Origin: Asterias amurensis
Lineage: Eukaryota
Length of the DNA: 54,732 nucleotides
NCBI RefSeq assembly: GCF_032118995.1
Contig: NC_092652.1
Coordinates: 15,816,336 to 15,871,067, forward strand
Direction of reading: 5' to 3'
In this document: in pieces, positions 4,010-54,433 of the stretch
How the letters are laid out: each line of letters starts with the position of its first letter
Position numbering within the stretch: the stretch's first letter is position 1
Notes under the pieces: model-generated
Databases searched by the model: none
What the model saw: the letters and a program-made list of their open reading frames with translations, nothing else
What the model was told of the DNA's origin: nothing
Made by a program: the position numbers and the translations under genes

Positions 4010-4360
4010 GTGGGTGTGGTGGCCGAGCGGTCTAGGTCACCAGACCCAAGCTCTGGTGCTGTCGGCAGCAGAGTGTGGGTTCCAATCCCGGTCATAACAC
4101 TTGTGCCTTGAACATGTGTTGAACAAGGCACTTATAACCATAGTTGCTTTGTAAAACATTTGGAGTGTAGTGCATTCTGCTCTACCAGCCAGACTCTTAG
4201 TGTATGATACTCATGCCTATCCTTATAGACTGTGAAAGGGATAGCTTTGTTTCAGCCCCAAGAGTAGGTGGCAACGTGCCCCTTGTGACAGCTAAGTGTA
4301 GCCCTCACCTAGAAATGGTCTTCTATGGCCTTGTGATGTTAGGCAGTCTCCAAAAAAAGT
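4010..4360 (+). mobile_element. tRNA-derived SINE (family 5: same head, different body)
   Basis: Head ggtggccgagcggtctaggtcacc...cagagtgtgggttccaatcccggtcataacacttgtgcc. Body shared with 18316-18484 and 38485-38575. Confidence 0.65.
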
Positions 4361-10649: not shown

Positions 10650-10823
10650 TGAATTACTACGCACGATGTGGAAACGGTTGGGAGTACTACAAACCGTCTG
10701 ACCGCTGTTTCCTGTTTCGGCCATATGACTACAAGAACTGGTTCAATGCGCGCTACCAGTGCCGTGTAGAAGGAGGGGATCTTATGAGTCTATCAAACCC
10801 AGTTGATCAGACGTATGCCGCAA
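10650..10823 (+). CDS. exon; CTLD-C N-terminal part (NYYARCGNGWEYYKPSDRCFLF...QCRVEGGDLMSLSNPVDQTYAA)
   Basis: Acceptor tcatttcag at 10647-10649, donor gtaagt at 10824. ORF 10613..10852. Confidence 0.85.
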
Positions 10824-11499
10824 GTAAGTCACGTTACAAAATTGGTTGTTGAATTAAAATTATGAAATGGAATGTTGTGTACATTTGGTTATCACTTCTA
10901 AACTTATTGGCAATACATACTTACTTTGTTAGAAGTCTACAGCAGCTGTCAATCGTATAAAGCAATTTGAGAAACTATTTCGGTTTGAATCCCGCAAAAT
11001 TTGAATTTGAGAAATTTTATTGTCAGAAACGTTTCTCAGATTGTGTATTCCAGTTACGTATTATTTTTCCTGCGAAGACATAACCGCTCCTGATTTTTGG
11101 CAATATCTCAGAAACGCTACACCTTTTAAAATGAAGTTCTCACAGGTTAGTTTTGTTGTACATGTATATATCTACGTGTAGACAGGAGCAAATATGTCCA
11201 CGCAGGAATATAGGAAAACACACTCTGATTTTTTGGAATAAAAAGCAATATCTTTTTCCATAACCGCAGTACTTGGAAGTGAAATTTTTCTCAAAATGCA
11301 TTATATTATCCAAAGCTGCTGTACTTCTTACCAAGGCAGTTTTAATTGCCATTAATTTTCAGAGTCATTACTGAATGTATACAGACCCAATAAGTGCTAG
11401 ATTCTCTGCTTCCTTTGAACCCCCTTTACACTTATTCAGAATCAGCAGGAATGAAGCAGAACTAGCCGGAATAAAGCAGAACCAGCCGGAATGAAGAAT

Positions 11500-11860
11500 C
11501 TTCAAAATTTGTGATATATTCGGGAGGGAATCTTCAAATTCGCGATATTCGATATAATCGCGATTAGTTAAATTTGACATCATCAGTCTTCAAACTCCCA
11601 GTGAAAGTTGTAGAAGAGACAGTCACAGCATAAGAGAGGTGTTCTTATGACCTATTCTTCTGGTTTTACTCCAAATCTATGGGGTGCATGATGTCTCAGC
11701 TAGAAAATACATCCCGATATTGCGATATTTAATCGATATCGCGATATATCGCAATATATAGGATATATCAATAAAAACCAAATCGATCCAATATCGAAAT
11801 CGTTTCCAAGTTAGTCTCGCGATATTTGATAATATCGTGATATCGCCCAAGCTTAAGCTC
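11500..11860. repeat. cluster of ATCGCGATAT-type palindromic motifs
   Basis: cgcgatattcgatataatcgcgat; cccgatattgcgatatttaatcgatatcgcgatatatcgcaatatat; ctcgcgatatttgataatatcgtgatatcgcc. Confidence 0.7.
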
Positions 11861-11981
11861 TAGTGTGCCTTGGGTTTTGAGCACTAACTTTTCATTGACA
11901 GTAGTTGAGCAATGCCATGCCATTGACCACAGGATTATCATTCTGATTGTATTTTATCTTGGTTGTAATTTGTGTAAACAG

Positions 11982-12098
11982 GTCGTTTGAAAACGAGCAC
12001 AGAGAGTATTTCATGGCTTGGATGTAATGACCTCGGAGTGGAAGGAGGATGGGTCTGGACCGACAAGAAACCGTTTGTATTCATTGACTGGAATCCAG
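11982..12098 (+). CDS. exon; CTLD-C middle (SRLKTSTESISWLGCNDLGVEGGWVWTDKKPFVFIDWNPG)
   Basis: Acceptor tgtgtaaacag at 11979-11981, donor gtaggt at 12099. Confidence 0.85.
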
Positions 12099-12594
12099 GT
12101 AGGTTAATAATAATACTAATGGATTTATAGAGCGCTTTGTGCAAGCATCAAAGCGCTTAACAGTCAAACAGTTAGTAAAAGCTTTTAAATTTAGGCAACA
12201 TAAAAAAAAGAAACTGTTGATCATCCCCGCCCGACCGTTCAAAACCCTCAACCCATTTTTTTTTTCCCATGTCTGGATATCTCTTTATACTTTTACTGCC
12301 CAGATTTTTCAGCTGAAATTTTTTTCCAAATGTACAGGTTTGAAAAGATGTTTAAAGAAGGTTTTTTATTCATGTTGGCAAAGCAAGAACAAATCTTCGA
12401 ATATTTACTTGGGCTACACTGTGCTTAGTTGTTTGAAAAGGTTTACAGAAAATGTCATCTAGGAGTTAAATTTGTTTGACAAAACTATTGAAAACATAAA
12501 AAAAAAAAAAAAACCTCATCCACAAAAAAAAGGACGATCAACAATTTCTTTGTTATGTGGCCTTAAGTGAAATGGGCGAATATAAATCATTTTT

Positions 12595-12905
12595 AATCTG
12601 AGGTCATTGGTTCAAATCCTGCTGTAGTAAACTTTTCTCTGTTCAATCCCAAATGATTTAAAAGTTGCATCCCCCTTTAAGGTGATCCCCTGGCTGCCTC
12701 TTCCCAGATTGTATTGTAAACTTGGGTGTGACCCCTGGCTCACGGCACTCACAGTTTGAATGTTCTCTGACTGGCACCCTAGAATAAACATATTGACATT
12801 ATAGGGAGACTGCCAAGTTGTTGCTAGCTCAGTTGGTTAGTTAATCCTGAGGTGATCGGTTCAAATCCTGCTTTAGTCAATTTGTCTGTTCAAACCCAAT
12901 AATGT
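12595..12905 (+). mobile_element. Lys-tRNA-like SINE (family 3) as a head-to-tail dimer
   Basis: Two tRNA-like units (..ggttcaaatcctgct..) separated by the conserved ~150-bp module gcatccccc..ggtgatcccctggctgcc..ctgactggcaccc.. Confidence 0.6.
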
Positions 12906-13073
12906 GTGCCCAACACATTTACTTAATACGTGACATTGCAGGGATTATATGAAAGCTATAAGCACTGACAACTTCTCAAATAGGCTGAAGTATAATCATT
13001 TGGGAAAAGGAAAGATTCAACTTAAATAAGAAATAACTGATATGGAAATCCTCTATTCATTGTTCATTTCCAG

Positions 13074-13199
13074 GTCAGCCAGATAATTGGTTTGGTGGCT
13101 CCAGCACTGGCGAACACTGCTGCCAGTTTTACAATAACATTGGAACGTGGAACGATAACTACTGTGAAACTGGTTTAGGGTATAGCTGCAATCGTGATG
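13074..13199 (+). CDS. exon; CTLD-C C-terminus carrying QPD...WND (GQPDNWFGGSSTGEHCCQFYNNIGTWNDNYCETGLGYSCNRD)
   Basis: Acceptor tcatttccag, donor gtaagt at 13200. The QPD plus WND pair is the galactose-type motif pair. Confidence 0.85.
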
Positions 13200-13811
13200 G
13201 TAAGTGCTCACTTTCTGGTTTTTCTTCTTCAGTTGCTGTGAACACTGCCCAAATGGTATATTTAATAATGCAGCTCTCAGCGTTAAAAAATTCCTGTATT
13301 GATCGTATTCCCACTGTGTTCTCTGCTGCTCTGTGTATGGGTATAAGTTTGCGTGCAAGATGCAAGACGCATGTAATATCTTGACTGCACAGCGTTAACA
13401 TGCAAACACAATGCACAATATTTGCATCTTGTGTACGCATGGCAGACTGTGAGAATACGATCAAAAACGGGATTTTTTTTTGTGAGGAACATATGACGAC
13501 CAAAACCCACCGCAGAAAAATGTATGCTGCCATGGAATGTGAATCTGTTGAAATTAGTGGCTTCTTGCAGGAAGCTTTGAGTTATGAAGCTTTAAAAAAA
13601 TTTCGCCCCAGAAATGGACCCTGATATCCAGGACGTCACTCTAGTATAATGCGAAAGTGTAAGACCGCCAGGGCTAAGTAATTATCTAAAACTATTAATA
13701 ACTGTTAATACTTAACAGTATTTAACAGGGATGGGCATTGTGAAGTCCGAAATGTTGAAAAAGTTGGACTGCCGCCTGATTCGCCCTGATCATTGTCTTT
13801 CCTTCCTCTAG

Positions 13812-14057
13812 ATTACATCTTCAAGTATTACATCTCATTCCCCGAGAAGCAGCTCCTTGGAAACGACGACAAGACGCTGAAGAACATCTTTCCGAGTGAG
13901 TGCGCAAGACGTTGCGTCACCGAAACAGACTTTACCTGTCGCTCATTTGACTATGAACGCAACAAGATGACATGCTACCTCAGTAAGACCGACAAGAACG
14001 TGGCGGGAGGACTTGTACCATCATTTGAATCGCAGCACTTTGACTACTATGAGAGAG
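13812..14057 (+). CDS. exon encoding a complete PAN/apple-like domain (ECARRCVTETDFTCRSFDYERNKMTCYLSKTDKNVAGG), symmetric phase 1-1
   Basis: Acceptor ttccttcctctag, donor gtaggc at 14058. ORF 13793..14116 has the same frame. C..C...F.C.SF.Y......CYL spacing typical of PAN/apple modules. Confidence 0.8.
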
Positions 14058-14454
14058 GTAGGCAATATAAAAACAGATTGGTTTTAACAAAGGATTGTCT
14101 AAATTCTTCCAAGTGACCTATCACTGATTTTTTGAACAAACATTTTAGTCAAATTCTCTTCTTTTTTTAAAATACTTTTTACTTGATTTTGTTGTCTTTG
14201 TTCAATAATAGTTTACTTATACTACGCACATATCTGTCGATAAAGACACCCAAGCCGCACATAGAAAAAATTAATGGTTCATTTAAACAGAAAACTTGAT
14301 TCTGAAAGAACGCTTATTGAAAGAACGCTTATTGTCTTTAAAAATGGACTTGAAGCACCCAAGGGATGTAGATTAACAAAGATCTTATGTGAGAGTGTTC
14401 CAAACTCGTGGAGCAGCCACACAGAATGACCCAAAATTATTTAAAATTTATCTA

Positions 14455-14745
14455 TCAGTCAGTTTCTCTTGTGGTGTATCATTTAAAATCTGAAATAAAA
14501 ATTAGCATCCCCTTTATATGGTGATTTCCCTGGCTCGTCGCTTCCCTGGTTGTAGCGTAAACTTGGATGTGATTCCTGGCTACACGGTAGTTGGCGGTTA
14601 TATATGGCTTTTGACTGGCACCCCTAAACAAAATAGGGAGGCCGCCAACGTAGGGCTAGATAGCTCAGTTGGTAGAGCGCAGGTACGTTATTCCAGAGGT
14701 TGTTGGTTTAAATCTCGCTCTGGTAATTTTTCTTGTTGTGGGAAT
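14455..14745 (+). mobile_element. SINE family 3 copy; tRNA-like unit at 14653-14728
   Basis: gggctagatagctcagttggtagagcgc..ggtttaaatctcgctctggtaa preceded by the conserved module. Accounts for ORFs 14518..14760 and 14669..14911. Confidence 0.6.
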
Positions 14746-15296
14746 CAACTCATGGGGTAAGGCTGACAGCAGACAGAGGACTGGCTATGTGCGTGTCCTC
14801 CGCTGTAATACTGGTGCAGAGACCACAGCAGGGCCCAATTTACCAGGGTTTACCGCTTACCACATTTTTATGCCTGCAATTACCAGTCTCTGCTTACTGT
14901 GCCAGTGTTGATCTTCTGCGCTCGCCTGTTACGCAAATAATGCCTATGGTGCGTTTGTTTAGCTTCCCTGGTGTGTGGCGTTTTTTTTTTCCAGGACGAA
15001 CGTGGGTAATTATCTGCACACGTTCGTCCTGGAAAGAAAAAACGGGACGCTAAACGAACGCACCCCTAGTAACATTGAGTCCGCTTGCACAAGCAAAAAT
15101 GTGAACCTGTGAACTACACTTGAATAAGTGCCGAATTCTCTGCATCCTTGAGCACCAATTCGTTGGTTACGGTAAGCGGACCTATAAAATGGGCCCAGAA
15201 CTGACTGCCTTCATAGGGTTAAGAGAAGATTGGATTGGCGAGAGGCTGTGCTGGTTGCCATTGAAATATTGTTTTATCTGTGTTTCTTTTTGCCAG

Positions 15297-15515
15297 ATTT
15301 CTCTGTGGCAGTTCCAATACCAACTAAAGCTCCTGGTACCGACATGGGATGCGCCAAAGGTTGGGGTCGATACAAGGGGTTCTGCTACTTTGCCAATCTA
15401 GCCGCACTGGAGTTCGCTGAGGCAGAGAAAGCATGCAAGAATCAAGGAGCTGAAATGGCTTCCATTTTAGACATGAATGCCAATAACTTCCTGAGGGCTA
15501 ACATCTACGAGAAAA
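15297..15515 (+). CDS. exon; CTLD-D N-terminal part (DFSVAVPIPTKAPGTDMGCAKGWGRYKGFCYFANLAALEFAEAEKACKNQGAEMASILDMNANNFLRANIYEK)
   Basis: Acceptor ttctttttgccag, donor gtaagt at 15516. ORF 15230..15538. Confidence 0.85.
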
Positions 15516-15631
15516 GTAAGTATTTCAAAACAGAGTAACATTGAAAAATAAACTGAAGTAACACTTTTCGCCATTGGTGAAGGGATGTGATTTCTCTGTT
15601 CTTAAAAAAAAAAGATTCTTGGTTTTTTTTG

Positions 15632-15668
15632 CCCCCCCCCCCCCCACAAAAAGAAAAAAAAAAAAAAT
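15632..15668. repeat. poly-C followed by poly-A tract
   Basis: gcccccccccccccccacaaaaagaaaaaaaaaaaaaa. Confidence 0.9.
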
Positions 15669-15756
15669 AATGAAGATAAAACCATATAAATTACGCCCCA
15701 GATTGCAGAGTAGGGCTTTTAAAACCAAAGATATATGTTATTATTGGGCTTCATGC

Positions 15757-16130
15757 TCGTTGCCTTGGATCGGACGAGTTGGTGTATAAAAAGCGTTTGA
15801 AACCGTTTGTTATAAAATGCATATGGTTAGAAAGATATTTAAAAAGTAGAATATAAGGATCCACACAAGTATCACTCGAAATTGCATGGTTTTCATTTTA
15901 CGTCGTGAACTAACGCGGTTGGCCATTTTATGGAGTCAAAATTTTGACTCCACAAAATGGCCGACTGTGTTTCTTCTCGATGTAAAAGGAAAACCGTGCA
16001 ATTTCCAGGCATGTTTGTGTGGATCATTGTATAATCTACTTTTAAATTATCTATCTGACCATTTGCATAACATAACAAACAGTTTCAAACGCTTTTCAAA
16101 GAACAACTCGACCGATCCAGATTTCCTTTA
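15757..16130. mobile_element. MITE family A copy with degenerate ends
   Basis: Full-length similarity to 3103-3472. Source of spurious ORFs 15886..16131 and 15893..16078. Confidence 0.7.
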
Positions 16131-16213
16131 ATGTTTTGGACAAAAGGCAACACCGTTGCCTACCATGATTCATGTGTTACATCATCATCTGATGACCTTG
16201 TTGTTCTCAACAG

Positions 16214-16371
16214 CAAAGACCATCACTCGCTACTGGATCGGTCTGAATGATAAGAAGACAGAAATGCTGTATGAATGGTCTGATGGTACTCCGGTAACCT
16301 ACACTAACTGGTATGCCCATGAACCCAACGATGCCAACGGTGAAGATTGTGTCGAGATATACACCGACATT
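16214..16371 (+). CDS. exon; CTLD-D middle with EPN (TKTITRYWIGLNDKKTEMLYEWSDGTPVTYTNWYAHEPNDANGEDCVEIYTDI)
   Basis: Acceptor ttctcaacag, donor gtaaga at 16372. ORF 16156..16407. EPN is the mannose-type motif. Confidence 0.85.
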
Positions 16372-16518
16372 GTAAGAAACACTATTTATGTAACTTTTCA
16401 TCAATGATTAATTCCAATGTGAAAGAAGTACTGAGTATACGGTGCTAACACACACCGATATATATGGGTTAAAGCAAAATTAATATTCTGTATGACACAC
16501 CTCTTGCTTGTTCTGTAT

Positions 16519-16614
16519 TCTGGTTGGCTGAAACACAGTCACGTGGGGTGATTTAAAATAGTAATCTGGTTGGCTGAAACACAGTCACGTGGGGTGAACT
16601 AATATAGTCTAGTG
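16519..16614. repeat. 48-bp tandem duplication
   Basis: tctggttggctgaaacacagtcacgtggggtga(t/a)(t/c)taa(a/t)atagt occurs twice. Confidence 0.8.
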
Positions 16615-16662
16615 ATTGTGCGTACATGTTTTGCGTAAATAGTGCCCGATCGGGCACTAGTC

Positions 16663-16926
16663 TTTAAAAAAACACCCTTGTCACATGAAGTTGCGTGCTT
16701 TCAGATGCTTGATTTCGGGACCTCAAAATCTAATTCTGAGGTCTCAAATTCAAATTCAAATATTTTAGTCAAAAAATTACTTCTTTCTCGAAAACTGCGT
16801 TACTTAAGAGTGAGCCATTTCTCAGCATGTTTTATACTATCAACAGCTCTCCATTGCTTGTTACCAAGTAAGTTTTTATGTTAACAATTATTTTAAGTAA
16901 CTACCATTAGTGTCAAGTGCCTTTAA
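16663..16926 (+). mobile_element. MITE family B copy, 5-prime truncated
   Basis: Internal and 3-prime TIR similarity. Accounts for ORF 16642..16884. Confidence 0.7.
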
Positions 16927-16960
16927 ATGAGTATACATGTTTGGAATTACTCTTTAACAG

Positions 16961-17068
16961 GGCTACTGGAATGACTTGAATTGTAAAGGATACACCTTCA
17001 GCTCTATCTGTAAGAAGCCTCTCTCTTCTGGTAACCCAGTACACTTGCCAGCCGCAACATGCCCAACT
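16961..17068 (+). CDS. exon; CTLD-D C-terminus plus linker plus first Cys of CTLD-E (GYWNDLNCKGYTFSSICKKPLSSGNPVHLPAATCPT)
   Basis: Acceptor ctctttaacag, donor gtaagt at 17069. Confidence 0.85.
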
Positions 17069-18814: not shown

Positions 18815-19020
18815 AAATTCTGACTGGCACCCCCGAACAAAGATATTAACAAAATAGGGACACCGCCAACATAGGGCTAGATAGCTCAGTTGGTGGAGCG
18901 CTGGCTTGTTAATCCAGAGGTCGTTGGTTCGAATCCCACTCTAGTCAACTCTTTGTTCAACCCCCAAACTCATTTAAAAATTTACCCAGTCAGTTTCCCT
19001 TGTGGTTTATATTGATAACT
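18815..19020 (+). mobile_element. SINE family 3 copy; tRNA-like unit at 18876-18950 (anticodon-loop region cttgttaatcc, Lys-like)
   Basis: gggctagatagctcagttggtggagcgctggcttgttaatccagaggtcgttggttcgaatcccactctagtcaa. The 3-prime acceptor strand mismatches the 5-prime strand, so it is not a functional tRNA. Confidence 0.65.
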
Positions 19021-21872: not shown

Positions 21873-22336
21873 GTAAGTTGAGAGGAACATTTGCGCATAA
21901 CTGCCACCCATCCAAAGAACAAATTCCACACAATGAAGTAAGACCAAACCTTTAGAAATTCTCTTTGTGACAGCTATAAGGCCTCCACAAATGCCAACCA
22001 CATCATATTTTCTGTTTATACATTTCCTGTGTATTCTTCTGGTCAGTTCATCCAAAAAGCTCTTTTTATTATTTTAAGGAGTTCTAGTTTAATAAAACCA
22101 TTGATTTGTTTTTGTTAAAATCTCAATTGCTACTTTGCATACATTCAGCAAGACATTGATAACCTTTTTTATTGTGTTTATTTTATTTAAGTATGTACAT
22201 GTACAAGGTGCTCACTCTATTTGAAACTGGCTATGAATATTTGTTATCCATCAGCATCTATTGATCAATGTTATCGGATTGCTGTGGATAATTTGGGGTT
22301 AACATCTGTTAATACCAATTGTGTTTATGTTTGCAG

Positions 22337-22395
22337 TACACCCACATCTTCAAACGGATTTTGGATTGGACTGAATGACCAACGCAAAGAGGGGG
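22337..22395 (+). CDS. exon; CTLD-F middle (FTPTSSNGFWIGLNDQRKEG)
   Basis: Acceptor tgtttgcag at 22334-22336, donor gtaagt at 22396. ORF 22221..22481 has the same frame. Confidence 0.75.
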
Positions 22396-22897
22396 GTAAG
22401 TTTTGGTCTGGCATTTCTTACAATTTACCTTTATCACGCTGTCACCATCTTGGTCATGTTCCCTGTTTCCGATCCCAGTAATGAATGCTAACATTCACTG
22501 CGCATGGCACATTCTAATATTTCGCCCATCCTCAGTTTGGTTACAATGAGTTGAAATGGAGTAAAATCAAGATGGCCACATCGTGATAAAATGCTTATAA
22601 TAAGAACAATTAGTGTGCACCTGTCCCCACAGATTGATCCAGGCACAGTACACTTCAATGAAATCTAAAAACTAAAGTTCAGTTATTTTTTTACATTGGT
22701 TTGAATTGCTACATTTTGTATACCTAGTGATCACTTAACCTCACCCCAAAAAAATACTTTTGTAAAAAAAAAGCTGCTCTAGTAATACAGAAAGGCATGA
22801 GTGTAAATTACTTTTTTATTGCACATCAATAAAGGGAAGGGAAACAATAACACAAAATGCCAACAAATTGTCAAAATGGATTACTTGCCCTCATGGC

Positions 22898-29660: not shown

Positions 29661-29927
29661 CCGGTGAATGGAGAGACAACAACTGTGGCGACTGGGCAAA
29701 GTTCATCTGCCAGAAAACCGTCGACGACGTTCCTATGGTAACACATGCACCAACCACACCTCCGACTGGCGAGTGTCCAAACGGCTGGAAAAAGTACAAC
29801 AATCGTTGCTACACCATTGGTGGAAAGAACGAAGGATCCAAGAAGAATTGGCAAGATGCCAGGAAGGAGTGTCAAACCTTGAATGCAGCGGCTAGCCTGG
29901 CATCCATACACGATATCGCTGTGCAGA
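29661..29927 (+). CDS. exon; CTLD-G C-terminus (GEWRDNNCGDWAKFICQK), PT-rich linker, and CTLD-H start (ECPNGWKKYNNRCYTIGG...LASIHDIAVQ)
   Basis: Acceptor attcatacccag, donor caga|gtaagt at 29928. ORF 29645..30100 continues past the donor because the downstream junction copies stay in frame. Confidence 0.85.
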
Positions 29928-30240
29928 GTAAGTATTCCTTTCGAATAACAGTTTCCCTTGTCGCAAGCCTGGTGTCCATACACGATACCTCTTTGCAGAG
30001 TAAGTATTCATTTCGAAAACAGTTTCCGTTGTATACTTTCGCCAGCCTGGATATCGCCGTGCAGAGTAAGTATAGACCAATCCAGGCGCGCATTGCCTAG
30101 CACTTGCGCGCCTGGATTGGTCTATTCCTTTCTAAAATAGTTTCCCTTGTATACTATCGCAAGCCTGGCGTCCATACACGATACCACTGTGCAGAGGATA
30201 GTACATTTAGTCATTTCCAGAACACTTTCCCTTGTTTATA
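29928..30240 (+). repeat. tandem array (3 extra units, 66-75 bp) copied from the exon-end plus splice-donor junction of exon 29661-29927
   Basis: Units repeat ..agcctgg(c/t)(g/a)tccatacacgata.c..tgcagag|taagtat..cagtttcc.ttgt.. Units 1 and 2 keep cagaGTAAGT and are 72 and 66 nt, so they stay in frame. Unit 3 has the GT mutated (gatagt). Confidence 0.85.
30075..30124. repeat. 50-bp perfect palindrome inserted into unit 2 of the junction repeat
   Basis: agaccaatccaggcgcgc attgcctagcactt gcgcgcctggattggtct. Confidence 0.8.
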
Positions 30241-38876: not shown

Positions 38877-39125
38877 TCGCATCCCCTTAAGGTGATCACC
38901 TAGCTGCCGCCTCCCAGGTTGTATCGTAATTTGGGTGTGATCCCTGGCTACACGGCAGTTAACGGTTGTATGGCTTCTGACTGGCACCCCCGAACAAAGA
39001 TATTGACAACATAGGGACACCGCCAATATAGGGCTAGATAGCTCAGTTGGTAGAGCGCCGACACGTTAATCCGGATGTCGTTGGTTCGAATCCCACTCTA
39101 GTCAATTCTTTGTTCAACCCCCCCC
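38877..39125 (+). mobile_element. SINE family 3 copy; tRNA-like unit at 39034-39110
   Basis: Conserved upstream module plus gggctagatagctcagttggtagagcgccgacacgttaatccggatgtcgttggttcgaatcccactctagtcaa. Confidence 0.65.
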
Positions 39126-44473: not shown

Positions 44474-44757
44474 ACATGGTGTATACTCGGTACTTTCCCG
44501 AGTTCTGTGAAAAAATTTCACATGCATATTACTCTAGCGGGATTGGATTCCACGACTCTTGCAATTCTAGAGCAGTGTCTTACCAACTAGACTACTTTGC
44601 CTAGTTACTAGAGGCAGTTGGAATCCTATATTTTGGCTGCGGGTACCGGGCAATCTCAGTAGTCTAGTTGGTAAGACACTGCTCTAGAATTGCAAGATTT
44701 GTGGGTTCGAATCCCACCCGAGAAAGTACTGAGAGTATACAGTGCTATGGGTAAAAA
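44474..44757. mobile_element. inverted dimer of SINE family 4 forming a ~120-bp-arm hairpin
   Basis: Arm 44474-44600 is the reverse complement of arm 44660-44757 (..gcaattctagagcagtgtcttaccaactagact..). A-rich tail at 44750-44771. Confidence 0.65.
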
Positions 44758-48949: not shown

Positions 48950-49135
48950 CTGTAGACAAGCAGGAGTTTCTCTGGAACGACGGTCAGCCGCTGGATTACA
49001 CAAACTGGAAAGTAGGAGAACCAGACAACGAGCTAGATTCCGAGGACTGTGTACGCATAATGACATCGGAGTACGGCAAATGGGAAGACACTGGATGCGC
49101 CTCTTACTCACAGTTAGTCTGCAAGAGACCCAAAG
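48950..49135 (+). CDS. exon; CTLD-N C-terminal part with EPD...WED (AVDKQEFLWNDGQPLDYTNWKVGEPDNELDSEDCVRIMTSEYGKWEDTGCASYSQLVCKRPK)
   Basis: Acceptor tttccctctgtag, donor gtacgt at 49136. Confidence 0.85.
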
Positions 49136-51729: not shown

Positions 51730-51885
51730 TTGGCGGTTGTGAGAAAGATTGGTACCGGATGAACAACTTATGTTATGGAGCATTTGGCAGCAACGAGCCC
51801 GAATCATTAACGTGGACTGAAGCTTATAAGTCTTGCGAGAATAAGGGTGGCAACTTAGCTACTGTCTATGGTCAGAATGTCCTAT
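51730..51885 (+). CDS. exon; CTLD-O N-terminal part (VGGCEKDWYRMNNLCYGAFGSNEPESLTWTEAYKSCENKGGNLATVYGQNVL)
   Basis: Acceptor ttttttcattccgaag, donor gtaagt at 51886. ORF 51711..51932. Confidence 0.85.
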
Positions 51886-51957
51886 GTAAGTCACTTATGT
51901 CTGCAGTTTTCTTGTATTTTTGCTTTTGTTGACATATTAAATTAGCTCTAGCCATAT

Positions 51958-52143
51958 GCTCGGTTCATACTTCCTGCGAATGCGATGTGAATTTGACGTG
52001 AATTTGTTGTCACAACTCTCCCCTTGCAACGATATTCGCAAGTGAGTTGAGCAGAGTTGAACTGCTGCGAATTATTTGTTGCTAATTTGTGACATCAACA
52101 TTCGCTTTGCATCCGCATTCGCTGGAAGGGATGAGCCGGGCTT
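51958..52143. mobile_element. MITE family F copy
   Basis: gctcggttcatacttcctgcgaatgcgatg ... cattcgctggaagggatgagccgggctt. Confidence 0.7.
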
Positions 52144-52685
52144 AAGTCTTGAAGTTTAAGTTTTGTTTCCTTCTGCATTATTTCTATGTAAGCAGGCAGT
52201 GCAAGTCTCGCACGTGCACACATTTCTGGGACCAAGTTGGTCCAAACCACATTGAGTTTAACAATATTGGGTTCATAATATGTCCAGTCTAGGCCGATTT
52301 TTTCACTTTTCATCTTATCTCTGTACTTGCTTTCCTCAGAGTGTAATTCTTTTAGTTAGGCTGTTTCTGTTATCTGTGTGATATAGAAAGGTTTGCGGTC
52401 ACACCATGTAATGATAATCTCTAAATGAGTTGGGATGGTTTTGAAAAGGGCCGTTGGTTTCAACTCAACGTTTTGATCAGAATGCTCTGGTTATCTTCTT
52501 TTCTCTTAAGAAGACGATCGGAAGCATACTGGTCAAAACATCGAGTTGAAACCACTGGTTCCTTTCAGAACCACCCCAACTCATTTAGAGATTACCATTT
52601 CATGTTGTATCCACAAACCTTTCTGTATCGTGTTTCCACCATACAAAGTTTCAAATCCTACTTATCTGTGTGATATATTTGTGGA

Positions 52686-53090
52686 AGTGTCGTGACCGAG
52701 CGGTTAAGAGCACCGAAATCAAACTCTGGTGCTTCTGATGAGCAAAGTGTGGGTTCGAATCCCCAGTTATGACACTTGTGTTCTTAAGCAAGACAATGAA
52801 CCATTGCTTCGGATGGGATGTAAAGCCATTGGTGCCATGTGTGGGTGCCATGTGTTGTGTAAAGCATGAAAAAGGACCCAGTGCACTTATCGAAAAGAGA
52901 AGGGGTTAGCCCCGGTGTTCCTGGCTGTGGGTGCTGTATGCGCCGTAGCATGTACATAACGGGTCTCACTATTCGTCACTGCAATAACCTATCTTTCTAA
53001 AAGTTTGTGTATATACCCAGTGCCGTGAGTACCTTGTTTGGTAGATACGTGCACTATATAAGACTTTGATATTATTATATTATTATTTTT
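52686..53090 (+). mobile_element. SINE family 2 full copy
   Basis: Head gtcgtgaccgagcggttaagagcaccg...gtgtgggttcgaatccccagttatgacac. Tail cactatataagactttgatattattat. Confidence 0.7.
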
Positions 53091-53105
53091 TGTCCAACTT
53101 TCCAG

Positions 53106-53242
53106 CTTTGCTAGAAGCCATGATGTTCATGATGAGACGTACCAATGCATGGATTGGATTGAATAAGATTGATGGTTCATATGAATGGGCAGATGGAACT
53201 CCCATGCAGTTTGAACACTGGACTGAAAACTTCCCTGATAAG
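53106..53242 (+). CDS. exon; CTLD-O middle (SLLEAMMFMMRRTNAWIGLNKIDGSYEWADGTPMQFEHWTENFPDK)
   Basis: Acceptor ccaactttccag, donor gtatgt at 53243. ORF 53066..53284. Confidence 0.8.
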
Positions 53243-53749
53243 GTATGTGTGCATGGCAAGTTAATATCAAGCTCAATCAGTTAAGCGCACTGGACACTTT
53301 TGGTAAACCTTGCGTGTGACGCTAAACATACCTTCATCTGCCAGACGGCAGACATTGGGAAACCAATGTTGGCAGGTCTGCGAGGTGGGGTGGTTAAGTG
53401 TCCAAAACGTCACCACGAAATATTTCAGATTTGTTTTTCAACACCTGGTTGCTTCTCTGAGGAATACGTAATCTGAGAAACGTTTACTGACAGTAACGCT
53501 TCTCAGGTTCAACCTGTTTGCCATAAAACAAAACTGTGTTTCTGGTTCACATGCAAGTATCACTGTTTACAGGTTTACTCAGGCTTGTGAGCTACAGTGA
53601 TTCACTTATGCGGCATCCTTCATTGCCAGAAATATATAATAGTAGAATCAGACCAATACTTACCTCCAGATCCCCTGGGTTATTTTCATGTGAATTCTTT
53701 CCTTCTTGTTGCCCCTAACCAAAGGTTGCCTTGTTTGGGACACACTTGC

Positions 53750-54129
53750 TGAAAGGCGCTGGACACCTTTGGTAATTTTCAAAGACCGGTCTTCTCACTT
53801 GGTGTATCTTAACATAAGCATACAATAACAAATCTGTGGATATTTCAGCTCAATTGGCTGTCAAAGTTGTGAGATAAGACAAAACACCCTTGTCACAAAA
53901 AGTTGTGTGCTTTCAGATGCTTAATTTCGACACCTCACAATCTAGTTCTGAGATCCCGAAATCAAGTTCGAGGAAAATTACTTCTTTCTCAAAAAACTAC
54001 ATTTCTTCAGAGGGAGCCGTTTCTCACAATGTATTATACTACATGTATCAACAGCTCTCCATTCCTCTATACCAAGGTTTTGCTATTAATTATTTTGAGC
54101 AATTACCAATAGTGTCCAATGCCTTTTAA
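53750..54129 (+). mobile_element. MITE family B full copy. An orphan TIR fragment of the same family lies at 53283-53310
   Basis: aaaggcgctggacacctttggtaatt ... caattaccaatagtgtccaatgccTTTTAAc. Accounts for ORFs 53890..54129 and 53903..54112. Confidence 0.75.
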
Positions 54130-54321
54130 CAAAATAATAACAAGTACAATTTCAAACTTTGCATGGTGGAAATATGATATGGAAAGGTTTGTGATAACAC
54201 CATGTAATGACCATCTTAACCACCCCAACTCATTTAGAAAATAATAACAATCGAATGAATTGTTTTGCCTCACAAAAGTCATTTCACTCTTGTTTACTTA
54301 TCATTTTTTTTTTTACCAAAG

Positions 54322-54433
54322 GACCCTGACAATATGTGTGTGATGATTGTTAACAACCAAGTCAAGCCAGGATTCTGGAAGAACCTACCGTGTGAAGGGC
54401 CGAGAGAGGGATACTTCTGCCAAAAGCCAACCG
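54322..54433 (+). CDS. exon; CTLD-O C-terminus (DPDNMCVMIVNNQVKPGFWKNLPCEGPREGYFCQKPT). The gene continues beyond the window
   Basis: Acceptor ttttttttttaccaaag, donor gtaagt at 54434. Ends in phase 1, so more exons are expected downstream. Confidence 0.8.

Follow-up and report, generated by a model that had tools for sequence, protein, structure and literature searches.

An exon of Asterias amurensis between two C-type lectin-like domains (CTLDs) most likely encodes an ancient PAN module of an ambulacrarian mannose-receptor-like receptor, gained, as far as its sequence tells, by exon shuffling. The exon lies in a window of 54,732 nt, the whole stretch of DNA analysed here (contig NC_092652.1, positions 15,816,336 to 15,871,067, assembly GCF_032118995.1). 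As an overall explanation we consider it likely that this is a constitutive PAN_1 exon of a giant multi-CTLD receptor, shuffled in anciently and proposed to encode a binding module. Because the same exon is found in the same place in starfish and acorn-worm genes, and the same domain order in a feather-star protein, this is an old and fixed domain-shuffling event, tidy rather than surprising. Coordinates of the features are collected in Table 1.

Table 1. Features of the PAN-containing receptor gene in the window and of its relatives.
Feature	Source	Coordinates	Strand	Description
Host gene, incomplete at both window ends	window	141-54433	+	41 exons, 2213 codons, no stop
CTLD5 (CTLD-C), directly upstream of PAN	window	10650-13199	+	exons 10650-10823, 11982-12098, 13074-13199, all phase 1-1
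PAN_1 exon	window	13812-14057	+	246 nt, 82 codons, phase 1-1; encodes D-YIFKYY...FDYYER-D
PAN core with four Cys codons	window	13901-13975	+	codons 13901-03, 13913-15, 13937-39, 13973-75
CTLD6 (CTLD-D), directly downstream of PAN	window	15297-17068	+	exons 15297-15515, 16214-16371, 16961-17068
PAN exon	A. planci (L001)	22303-22545		243 nt, phase 1-1; tgttgttacag/AATAC...GAAAGAG/gtgagt
PAN exon	Glandiceps (L002)	16164-16403		240 nt, phase 1-1
Exon sizes	window			117/126/246 (PAN)/219/158/108/116/149/212/128/59
Exon sizes	A. planci			117/126/243 (PAN)/216/158/108/119/149/212/128/59
Exon sizes	Glandiceps (L002)			117/123/240 (PAN)/213, all phase 1-1
P0043	A. planci			XP_022088561.1 'lymphocyte antigen 75-like'; 2515 aa; 55% identity to exon; no extra domain
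P0129	A. planci			XP_022088512.1, paralogue of P0043; 1999 aa; 47% identity to exon; no extra domain
P0071	crinoid Anneissia japonica			XP_033107417.1; 2100 aa; 43% identity to exon; extra domain Methyltransf_FA
P0113	hemichordate Glandiceps talaboti			XP_077993987.1; 1091 aa; 44% identity to exon; extra domain Methyltransf_FA

The original prediction had placed a PAN exon with phase 1 introns on both sides between the two domains it called CTLD-C and CTLD-D, and splice sites, reading frame and joined translation bear this out. The acceptor reads ...ttccttcctctag/AT (slashes mark splice junctions) with its AG at 13810-13811, the exon letters after it begin ATTACATC..., and the donor reads GAGAGAG/gtaggc with its GT at 14058-14059. 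Comparison of the three forward frames left a single one open across the exon, that starting at 13814, which translates to YIFKYYISFPEKQLLGNDDKTLKNIFPSECARRCVTETDFTCRSFDYERNKMTCYLSKTDKNVAGGLVPSFESQHFDYYER, in agreement with the original translation. Since bases 13812-13813 complete the prior codon and base 14057 opens the next, the exon is phase 1 on both sides. The upstream exon ends in phase 1 at 13199 (CGT GAT G/gtaagt) and the downstream exon starts in phase 1 at 15297 (ttgccag/AT TTC TCT), so that the spliced CTLD5-PAN-CTLD6 product reads ...YSCNRD-D-YIFKYY...DYYER-D-FSVAVPIPTK..., a frame continuous with both neighbours. The exon has neither a start codon nor a signal peptide of its own.

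The symmetry of the exon is not special within the gene model, where 16 of the 41 exons are phase 1-1 and the introns at domain boundaries are phase 1 in every case. As phase 1 is general between modules, the PAN exon fits the pattern of the gene and does not stand out by symmetry. Its donor, GTAGGC, is sub-consensus and weaker than the GTGAGT of A. planci. The two introns on either side of the PAN exon, scanned for repeats and inverted repeats, gave nothing bearing on an insertion mechanism, as expected for an ancient event.

In an hmmscan search, the exon alone gave one match, Pfam PAN_1, with an E-value of 2.6e-13 and 50.1 bits against a gathering cut-off of 21.4, in agreement with the predicted module. 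The match covers profile positions 3-74 of 76 (72/76) and residues 6-81 of the 81 full codons, and inside the full gene model it scores 41.8 bits. An E-value this low lies well outside what chance would give, even when the window's roughly 2500 open segments are taken into account, and no further PAN-like stretch was found on either strand of the window. The four cysteines, C30, C34, C42 and C54, are spaced C-x3-C-x7-C-x11-C. Together with S44, F45, Y47 and D77 they are invariant across 13-14 aligned homologues, and the cysteines are also invariant in five orthologues.

Among solved proteins, the N domain of HGF and plasminogen come nearest in sequence. The plasminogen match aligns query residues 28-58 with chain residues 28-58, equal spans, and positions 30, 34, 42 and 54 are what we take to be the disulfide positions of plasminogen PAp, paired 30-54 and 34-42. 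By analogy with this plasminogen/HGF N-domain pairing, the disulfides of the exon are predicted to join the first to the fourth and the second to the third cysteine. An AlphaFold2 model of the exon, computed on the homologue alignment, shows a helix-on-sheet fold (pLDDT 94.3, pTM 0.83), and its best Foldseek matches in the PDB were the HGF N domain (TM 0.77-0.80) and plasminogen PAp (TM 0.83, rmsd 1.8 A). The apple domains of FXI and prekallikrein (TM about 0.62-0.64), the leech antiplatelet protein and apicomplexan microneme PAN domains came lower. Apple domains have six cysteines, including a disulfide that joins the first and the last and thereby the N and C termini. With four cysteines only and the weaker fold matches, the apple subtype of factor XI and prekallikrein is out for this exon. 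Of the PAN/apple cysteine spacing originally predicted, the PAN half therefore stands, as the four-cysteine plasminogen/HGF type, while the apple half, which requires six cysteines, falls away. Taken jointly with the origin described below, it is very probable that what the exon encodes is a PAN domain, complete and able to fold on its own, of the four-cysteine plasminogen/HGF N-domain type, with the disulfides as predicted.

The host gene model contains part of CTLD3, CTLD4-5, PAN, CTLD6-16 and one further CTLD. CTLD pieces were mapped by an iterated profile built from the window's own exons, and in a scan of the whole window they appeared on the + strand only, from about 1600 to 54400. Splice sites were chosen by frame consistency and simple site scores; a few borders (3538, 40768, 48244) are approximate, and linker exons of 27-42 nt that occur in A. 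planci are probably missing from the model. The profile counts 15 CTLDs in the model, and Pfam gives 14 Lectin_C domains plus one PAN_1. Several CTLD junctions are without any intron, and the introns within CTLDs are of phase 0, 1 or 2.

Complete sugar/Ca motifs occur in only four of the CTLDs: CTLD5, CTLD6, CTLD8 and CTLD10. CTLD5 has the motif QPD...WND, and with 55-64% identity to A. planci its exons belong to the better conserved ones of the gene. CTLD6 has EPN...WND and is preceded by the Pro/Thr-rich linker FSVAVPIPTKAPGTDMG. The PAN domain starts 3-4 residues past the last cysteine of CTLD5, and this linker comes after it. An unusual adjacent cysteine pair in CTLD5 (EHCC) is shared by the three asteroid-type sequences, while crinoid and hemichordate lack it.

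Compared with P0043 of A. planci, the window gene has one more CTLD after CTLD16 (51730-54433). This extra domain is complete (exons 51730-51885, 53106-53242 and 54322-54433), follows the counterpart of A. planci CTLD16 and joins exon 48950-49135 in phase 1; no transmembrane (TM) or FxNxxY tail exon was found downstream of 49135 within the window. This implies either that the gene has at least 17 CTLDs or that a tandem paralogue starts at this point.

When the exon was searched exhaustively with HMMER against 1.84 billion representatives, 564 matches at E <= 1e-3 were returned, and our taxonomic survey comprises the matches listed by this one search. Four single-PAN proteins among the matches listed are large CTLD arrays (P0043, P0129, P0071 and P0113; Table 1), and in all four PAN lies between the same two domains, CTLD5 and CTLD6. 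The A. planci, Anneissia and Glandiceps proteins are automatic RefSeq predictions, with the PAN site as in the window gene. In P0043, which runs from a signal peptide through CTLD1-5, PAN and CTLD6-16 to a TM segment and a short FxNxxY tail, CTLD5 covers residues 597-729, PAN 731-810 and CTLD6 829-953. Its Pfam content is 16 Lectin_C and one PAN_1, with no other non-CTLD domain. BLASTP places the window model on P0043 residues 338-2431 in a single colinear alignment, about 2100 residues long with 47% identity; identity falls to 43% with P0129 and to 38% with the crinoid protein. Judged by this likeness, the window gene is the counterpart of the A. planci gene for 'lymphocyte antigen 75-like'.

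The related genomes carry the PAN exon at the same junction, in A. planci and in Glandiceps. In the exon series listed for A. planci and the window (Table 1) the phases are identical. This comparison of exon phases rests on the A. planci and Glandiceps loci, and the crinoid was compared by protein domain order. Identity to A. planci is 54% for the PAN exon versus about 49% for a typical CTLD exon, PAN being at least as constrained, and the CTLD5-PAN junction is gap-free in five orthologues. At their C-terminal ends the orthologues have a TM segment and then a tail with FDNVLY, FENAAY or FDNALY. As the signal peptide, CTLD1-2, TM segment and tail of the window gene lie outside the window, its receptor topology was taken from these orthologues.

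PAN is not the only domain set into the CTLD array in the hemichordate and crinoid relatives, whose arrays also contain a Methyltransf_FA domain (PF12248). The Glandiceps copy is encoded by a single 435-nt phase 1-1 exon (L002 17829-18263) inside CTLD6, between exons 1 and 2 of that CTLD; in Anneissia the domain occupies residues 583-711 of P0071, between CTLD4 and CTLD5. A partial Saccoglossus protein carries Lectin_C, PAN_1 and Methyltransf_FA, and Pfam found no Methyltransf_FA in the window model or in A. planci. Methyltransf_FA looks like a second, mobile shuffled module of the same gene family. The two Anneissia isoforms P0071 (X2) and P0151 (X1), both of 2100 aa, differ at 24 positions; of these, the first 20 lie within residues ~105-138, in CTLD1. 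Such clustering points to a mutually exclusive exon pair, so that the family uses alternative exons, though not at PAN.

In the window, in A. planci and in Glandiceps, the borders of the PAN domain coincide with the borders of an exon between phase 1 introns. The top HMMER matches are mostly multi-PAN mosaics, non-CTLD relatives such as PAN x4 with CUB x2, PAN x13, or PAN with Laminin_B. The nearest non-CTLD relatives include a 'plasminogen-like' protein of Ptychodera with PAN, Kringle, SRCR, LDLa and Trypsin domains. The exon borders at the domain borders, the 1-1 phases and the recurrence of the module in unrelated mosaic proteins uphold the view of an exon-shuffled module. As we picture it, a PAN exon with phase 1 borders would have been inserted by exon shuffling into the phase 1 intron between CTLD5 and CTLD6. 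The insertion would date from before the divergence of echinoderms and hemichordates, with the exon retained at the CTLD5-CTLD6 junction since. That the starfish and the hemichordate share exon, junction and phases indicates that the exon predates the echinoderm-hemichordate split, which took place at or before the early Cambrian.

Three further PAN_1 relatives, P0138, P0144 and P0147 (33-39% identity), look bacterial rather than animal and have Sec-type signal peptides. One of the bacterial-looking proteins, of 572 aa, has a long Pro/Arg-rich region and a C terminus that by eye is peptidoglycan-binding-like. These matches hint at PAN_1 domains in prokaryotes, or at contamination.

The vertebrate mannose receptor family (MRC1, MRC2/Endo180, PLA2R1, LY75/DEC-205 and FcRY) shares the long tandem CTLD array with the window gene. 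LY75, FcRY, PLA2R, MRC1 and MRC2 were the top PDB sequence matches of the array, with E-values down to 9e-105 and colinear stretches of several CTLDs. The likeness extends to the orthologues of the window gene, with their single TM segment and short FxNxxY tail, and to the small number of CTLDs with full sugar motifs. The tail resembles what we take to be the internalisation motif of the mannose receptor family, and by analogy the receptor may have an endocytic role.

Vertebrate members have 8-10 CTLDs, compared with 15 in the window, 16 in P0043 and 16-17 overall, and here the array is interrupted by PAN. No Ricin_B or fn2 domain, corresponding to the ricin-type Cys-rich and FNII domains, was found by Pfam in full-length P0043, where the signal peptide directly precedes CTLD1. 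The best alignments to LY75 (DEC-205), FcRY and PLA2R, and also to MRC1, begin just after the PAN segment of the query, and nothing in the vertebrate family corresponds to a PAN domain within the array. By its sequence, the window gene is accordingly not a canonical mannose-receptor family member. The earlier claim that PAN modules are not part of the canonical architecture is thus supported by the DEC-205, PLA2R and MRC1 alignments and by the domain content of P0043.

The N domains of plasminogen, HGF and MSP agree with the exon in cysteine spacing and predicted fold; there the domain is N-terminal to a kringle-protease, whereas here it is internal. The apple domains of FXI and prekallikrein, and kalliklectin, have the same superfold, with six cysteines against the four of the exon, and are less like it than plasminogen/HGF. 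A CTLD and a PAN-superfamily module in one secreted protein have a nematode precedent in the class IV CTLD proteins of C. elegans (PMC5297725). The nematode proteins are small, with 1-2 CTLDs and 1-2 CW domains of the CW/PAN_3 subtype rather than mannose-receptor-like arrays, and this combination presumably arose independently. Already known, then, are CTLD+PAN combinations, in nematodes, and the ambulacrarian proteins, as automatic predictions in RefSeq; in our incomplete coverage of the literature we found no published description of a PAN domain within a CTLD array, in echinoderms or elsewhere. Of the 'unusual lectin/adhesion chimera' first proposed, the PAN domain within a CTLD array is real, but it is not a peculiarity, being conserved in echinoderms and hemichordates and having the nematode CTLD+PAN precedent.

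What the domain does in the receptor can be proposed from its surroundings. The HGF N domain, plasminogen PAp and MIC4 are examples of PAN/apple modules that act as binding modules. PMC5297725, with reference to Tordai et al. 1999, regards PAN modules as mediators of protein or carbohydrate binding, and mannose-specific lectins are known among apple-domain proteins (PMC3219417). In the window gene the PAN domain lies 3-4 residues from CTLD5 and is tied by the Pro/Thr linker to CTLD6, both neighbours having complete motifs; on these grounds it could well be an additional ligand-binding module, which we consider quite possible. It would then add a non-CTLD binding surface, for protein or glycan, to the most lectin-competent part of the array, and its role would parallel that of the Cys-rich and FNII domains, which add specificities to the vertebrate mannose receptor. 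The receptor as a whole would be an endocytic pattern-recognition receptor, the orthologues being type I membrane proteins. Binding of the heparin/GAG type by PAN is not indicated and we do not propose it, since the domain is approximately charge-neutral and, lacking most of the basic residues of what we take to be the HGF heparin site, keeps only one.

The main alternative, which we regard as rather unlikely, is that PAN, though constitutive, binds no ligand itself and only fixes the geometry of the CTLD array, as a rigid spacer or hinge. Invariance is confined to cysteines and core residues (CRSFDY, FDYYE), with no obvious surface patch, a basic heparin-type surface is not apparent from the sequence, and the very short, gap-free link to CTLD5 suggests a fixed structural unit. 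However, PAN/apple modules of characterised proteins are binding modules (PMC5297725; PMC3219417). Moreover, short Pro/Thr linkers act as spacers elsewhere in the protein, so a folded domain would be an expensive spacer to keep since before the echinoderm/hemichordate divergence. A two-domain CTLD5-PAN prediction for the A. planci segment, based on a 4-row alignment, reached pLDDT 47 and pTM 0.37, too low to judge the interface.

In both the ligand-binding and the spacer reading the exon is constitutive. A regulated cassette, skipped in some tissues or conditions to give isoforms with and without PAN, seems improbable. Skipping would keep the frame (246 nt, phase 1-1), as the original prediction had said, and the direct 13199/15297 junction would read ...CNRD-D-FSVAV...; in addition, the PAN donor GTAGGC is sub-consensus and the family does have alternative exons, as in the swapped CTLD1 segment of Anneissia X1 and X2. 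Nevertheless, the same 1-1 phases in so many exons of the gene mean that symmetry predicts nothing specific, PAN is present in every orthologue model examined, including both Anneissia isoforms, and the PAN exon is as conserved as its neighbours. An identity at or above that of the CTLD exons, together with the gap-free CTLD5-PAN junction, argues for constraint at the protein level and hence for routine inclusion. The PAN exon is thus, on sequence conservation, most likely a constitutive part of the receptor ectodomain, and the term 'cassette' holds in its structural sense only; as a name for an optional exon it is at odds with this conservation. That the exon is foreign to the lectin gene, as a chance frame, a decaying pseudo-exon, a nested intronic gene or an assembly chimera, is scarcely credible: we reject the chance-ORF, nested-gene and assembly-artefact readings in view of the PAN_1 E-value of 2.6e-13, the invariant cysteines and core residues, the orthologous exon with the same junction and phases in the annotated CDS of two independently assembled genomes of other species, and a frame that runs through both neighbours from an exon that itself lacks a start codon and a signal peptide.

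Returning to the exon as a constitutive binding module, echinoderms and hemichordates may share a distinct, old family of mannose-receptor-like endocytic receptors in which CTLD5-PAN-CTLD6 (a Gal-type CTLD, PAN and a Man-type CTLD) forms a composite recognition unit, with PAN standing in for the Cys-rich and FNII domains. This is a tentative extension, and so is the family layout that goes with it: a signal peptide, five CTLDs, PAN, 11 or more CTLDs, a TM segment and an FxNxxY tail. If true, it would be a parallel solution to adding a non-CTLD specificity to a multi-lectin receptor. Should PAN provide a ligand site between two sugar-competent CTLDs, the receptor would be a useful comparison for how the specificity of multi-lectin receptors diversifies.

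Mosaic immune-type proteins are common in invertebrate deuterostomes, and current understanding is therefore not overturned. The exon is of value as a clean and datable case of exon shuffling, in which a one-exon phase 1-1 module in a phase 1 inter-domain intron has been held in echinoderms and hemichordates. Furthermore, automatic names such as 'LY75-like' or 'MRC1-like' are not to be taken literally for receptors with an architecture of their own, without Cys-rich and FNII domains, with 16-17 CTLDs and with an internal PAN. This architecture matters for reading echinoderm immune-gene repertoires and expression studies.

Elsewhere in the window, positions 29894-30032 contain a 72-nt tandem duplication (1.9 copies, 88% match), in which the 3' end of exon 29661-29927 is repeated along with its GTAAGT donor. 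Equal-scoring phase 1 donors occur at 29927, 29999 and 30065, and use of the later ones would add 24 or 46 residues to the CTLD. Introns on the + strand contain tRNA-like sequences at 4013-4100, 18875-18947, 39032-39104 and 44653-44725 (Leu-caa, Asn-gtt twice, Ser-aga), three of the four scoring above the Rfam gathering threshold for tRNA. Such sequences could be genuine tRNA genes or else mark the heads of tRNA-derived SINEs. Translated motifs like 'AQLVER..PEVVGSNP' recur in further introns, for example at 14660-14760.
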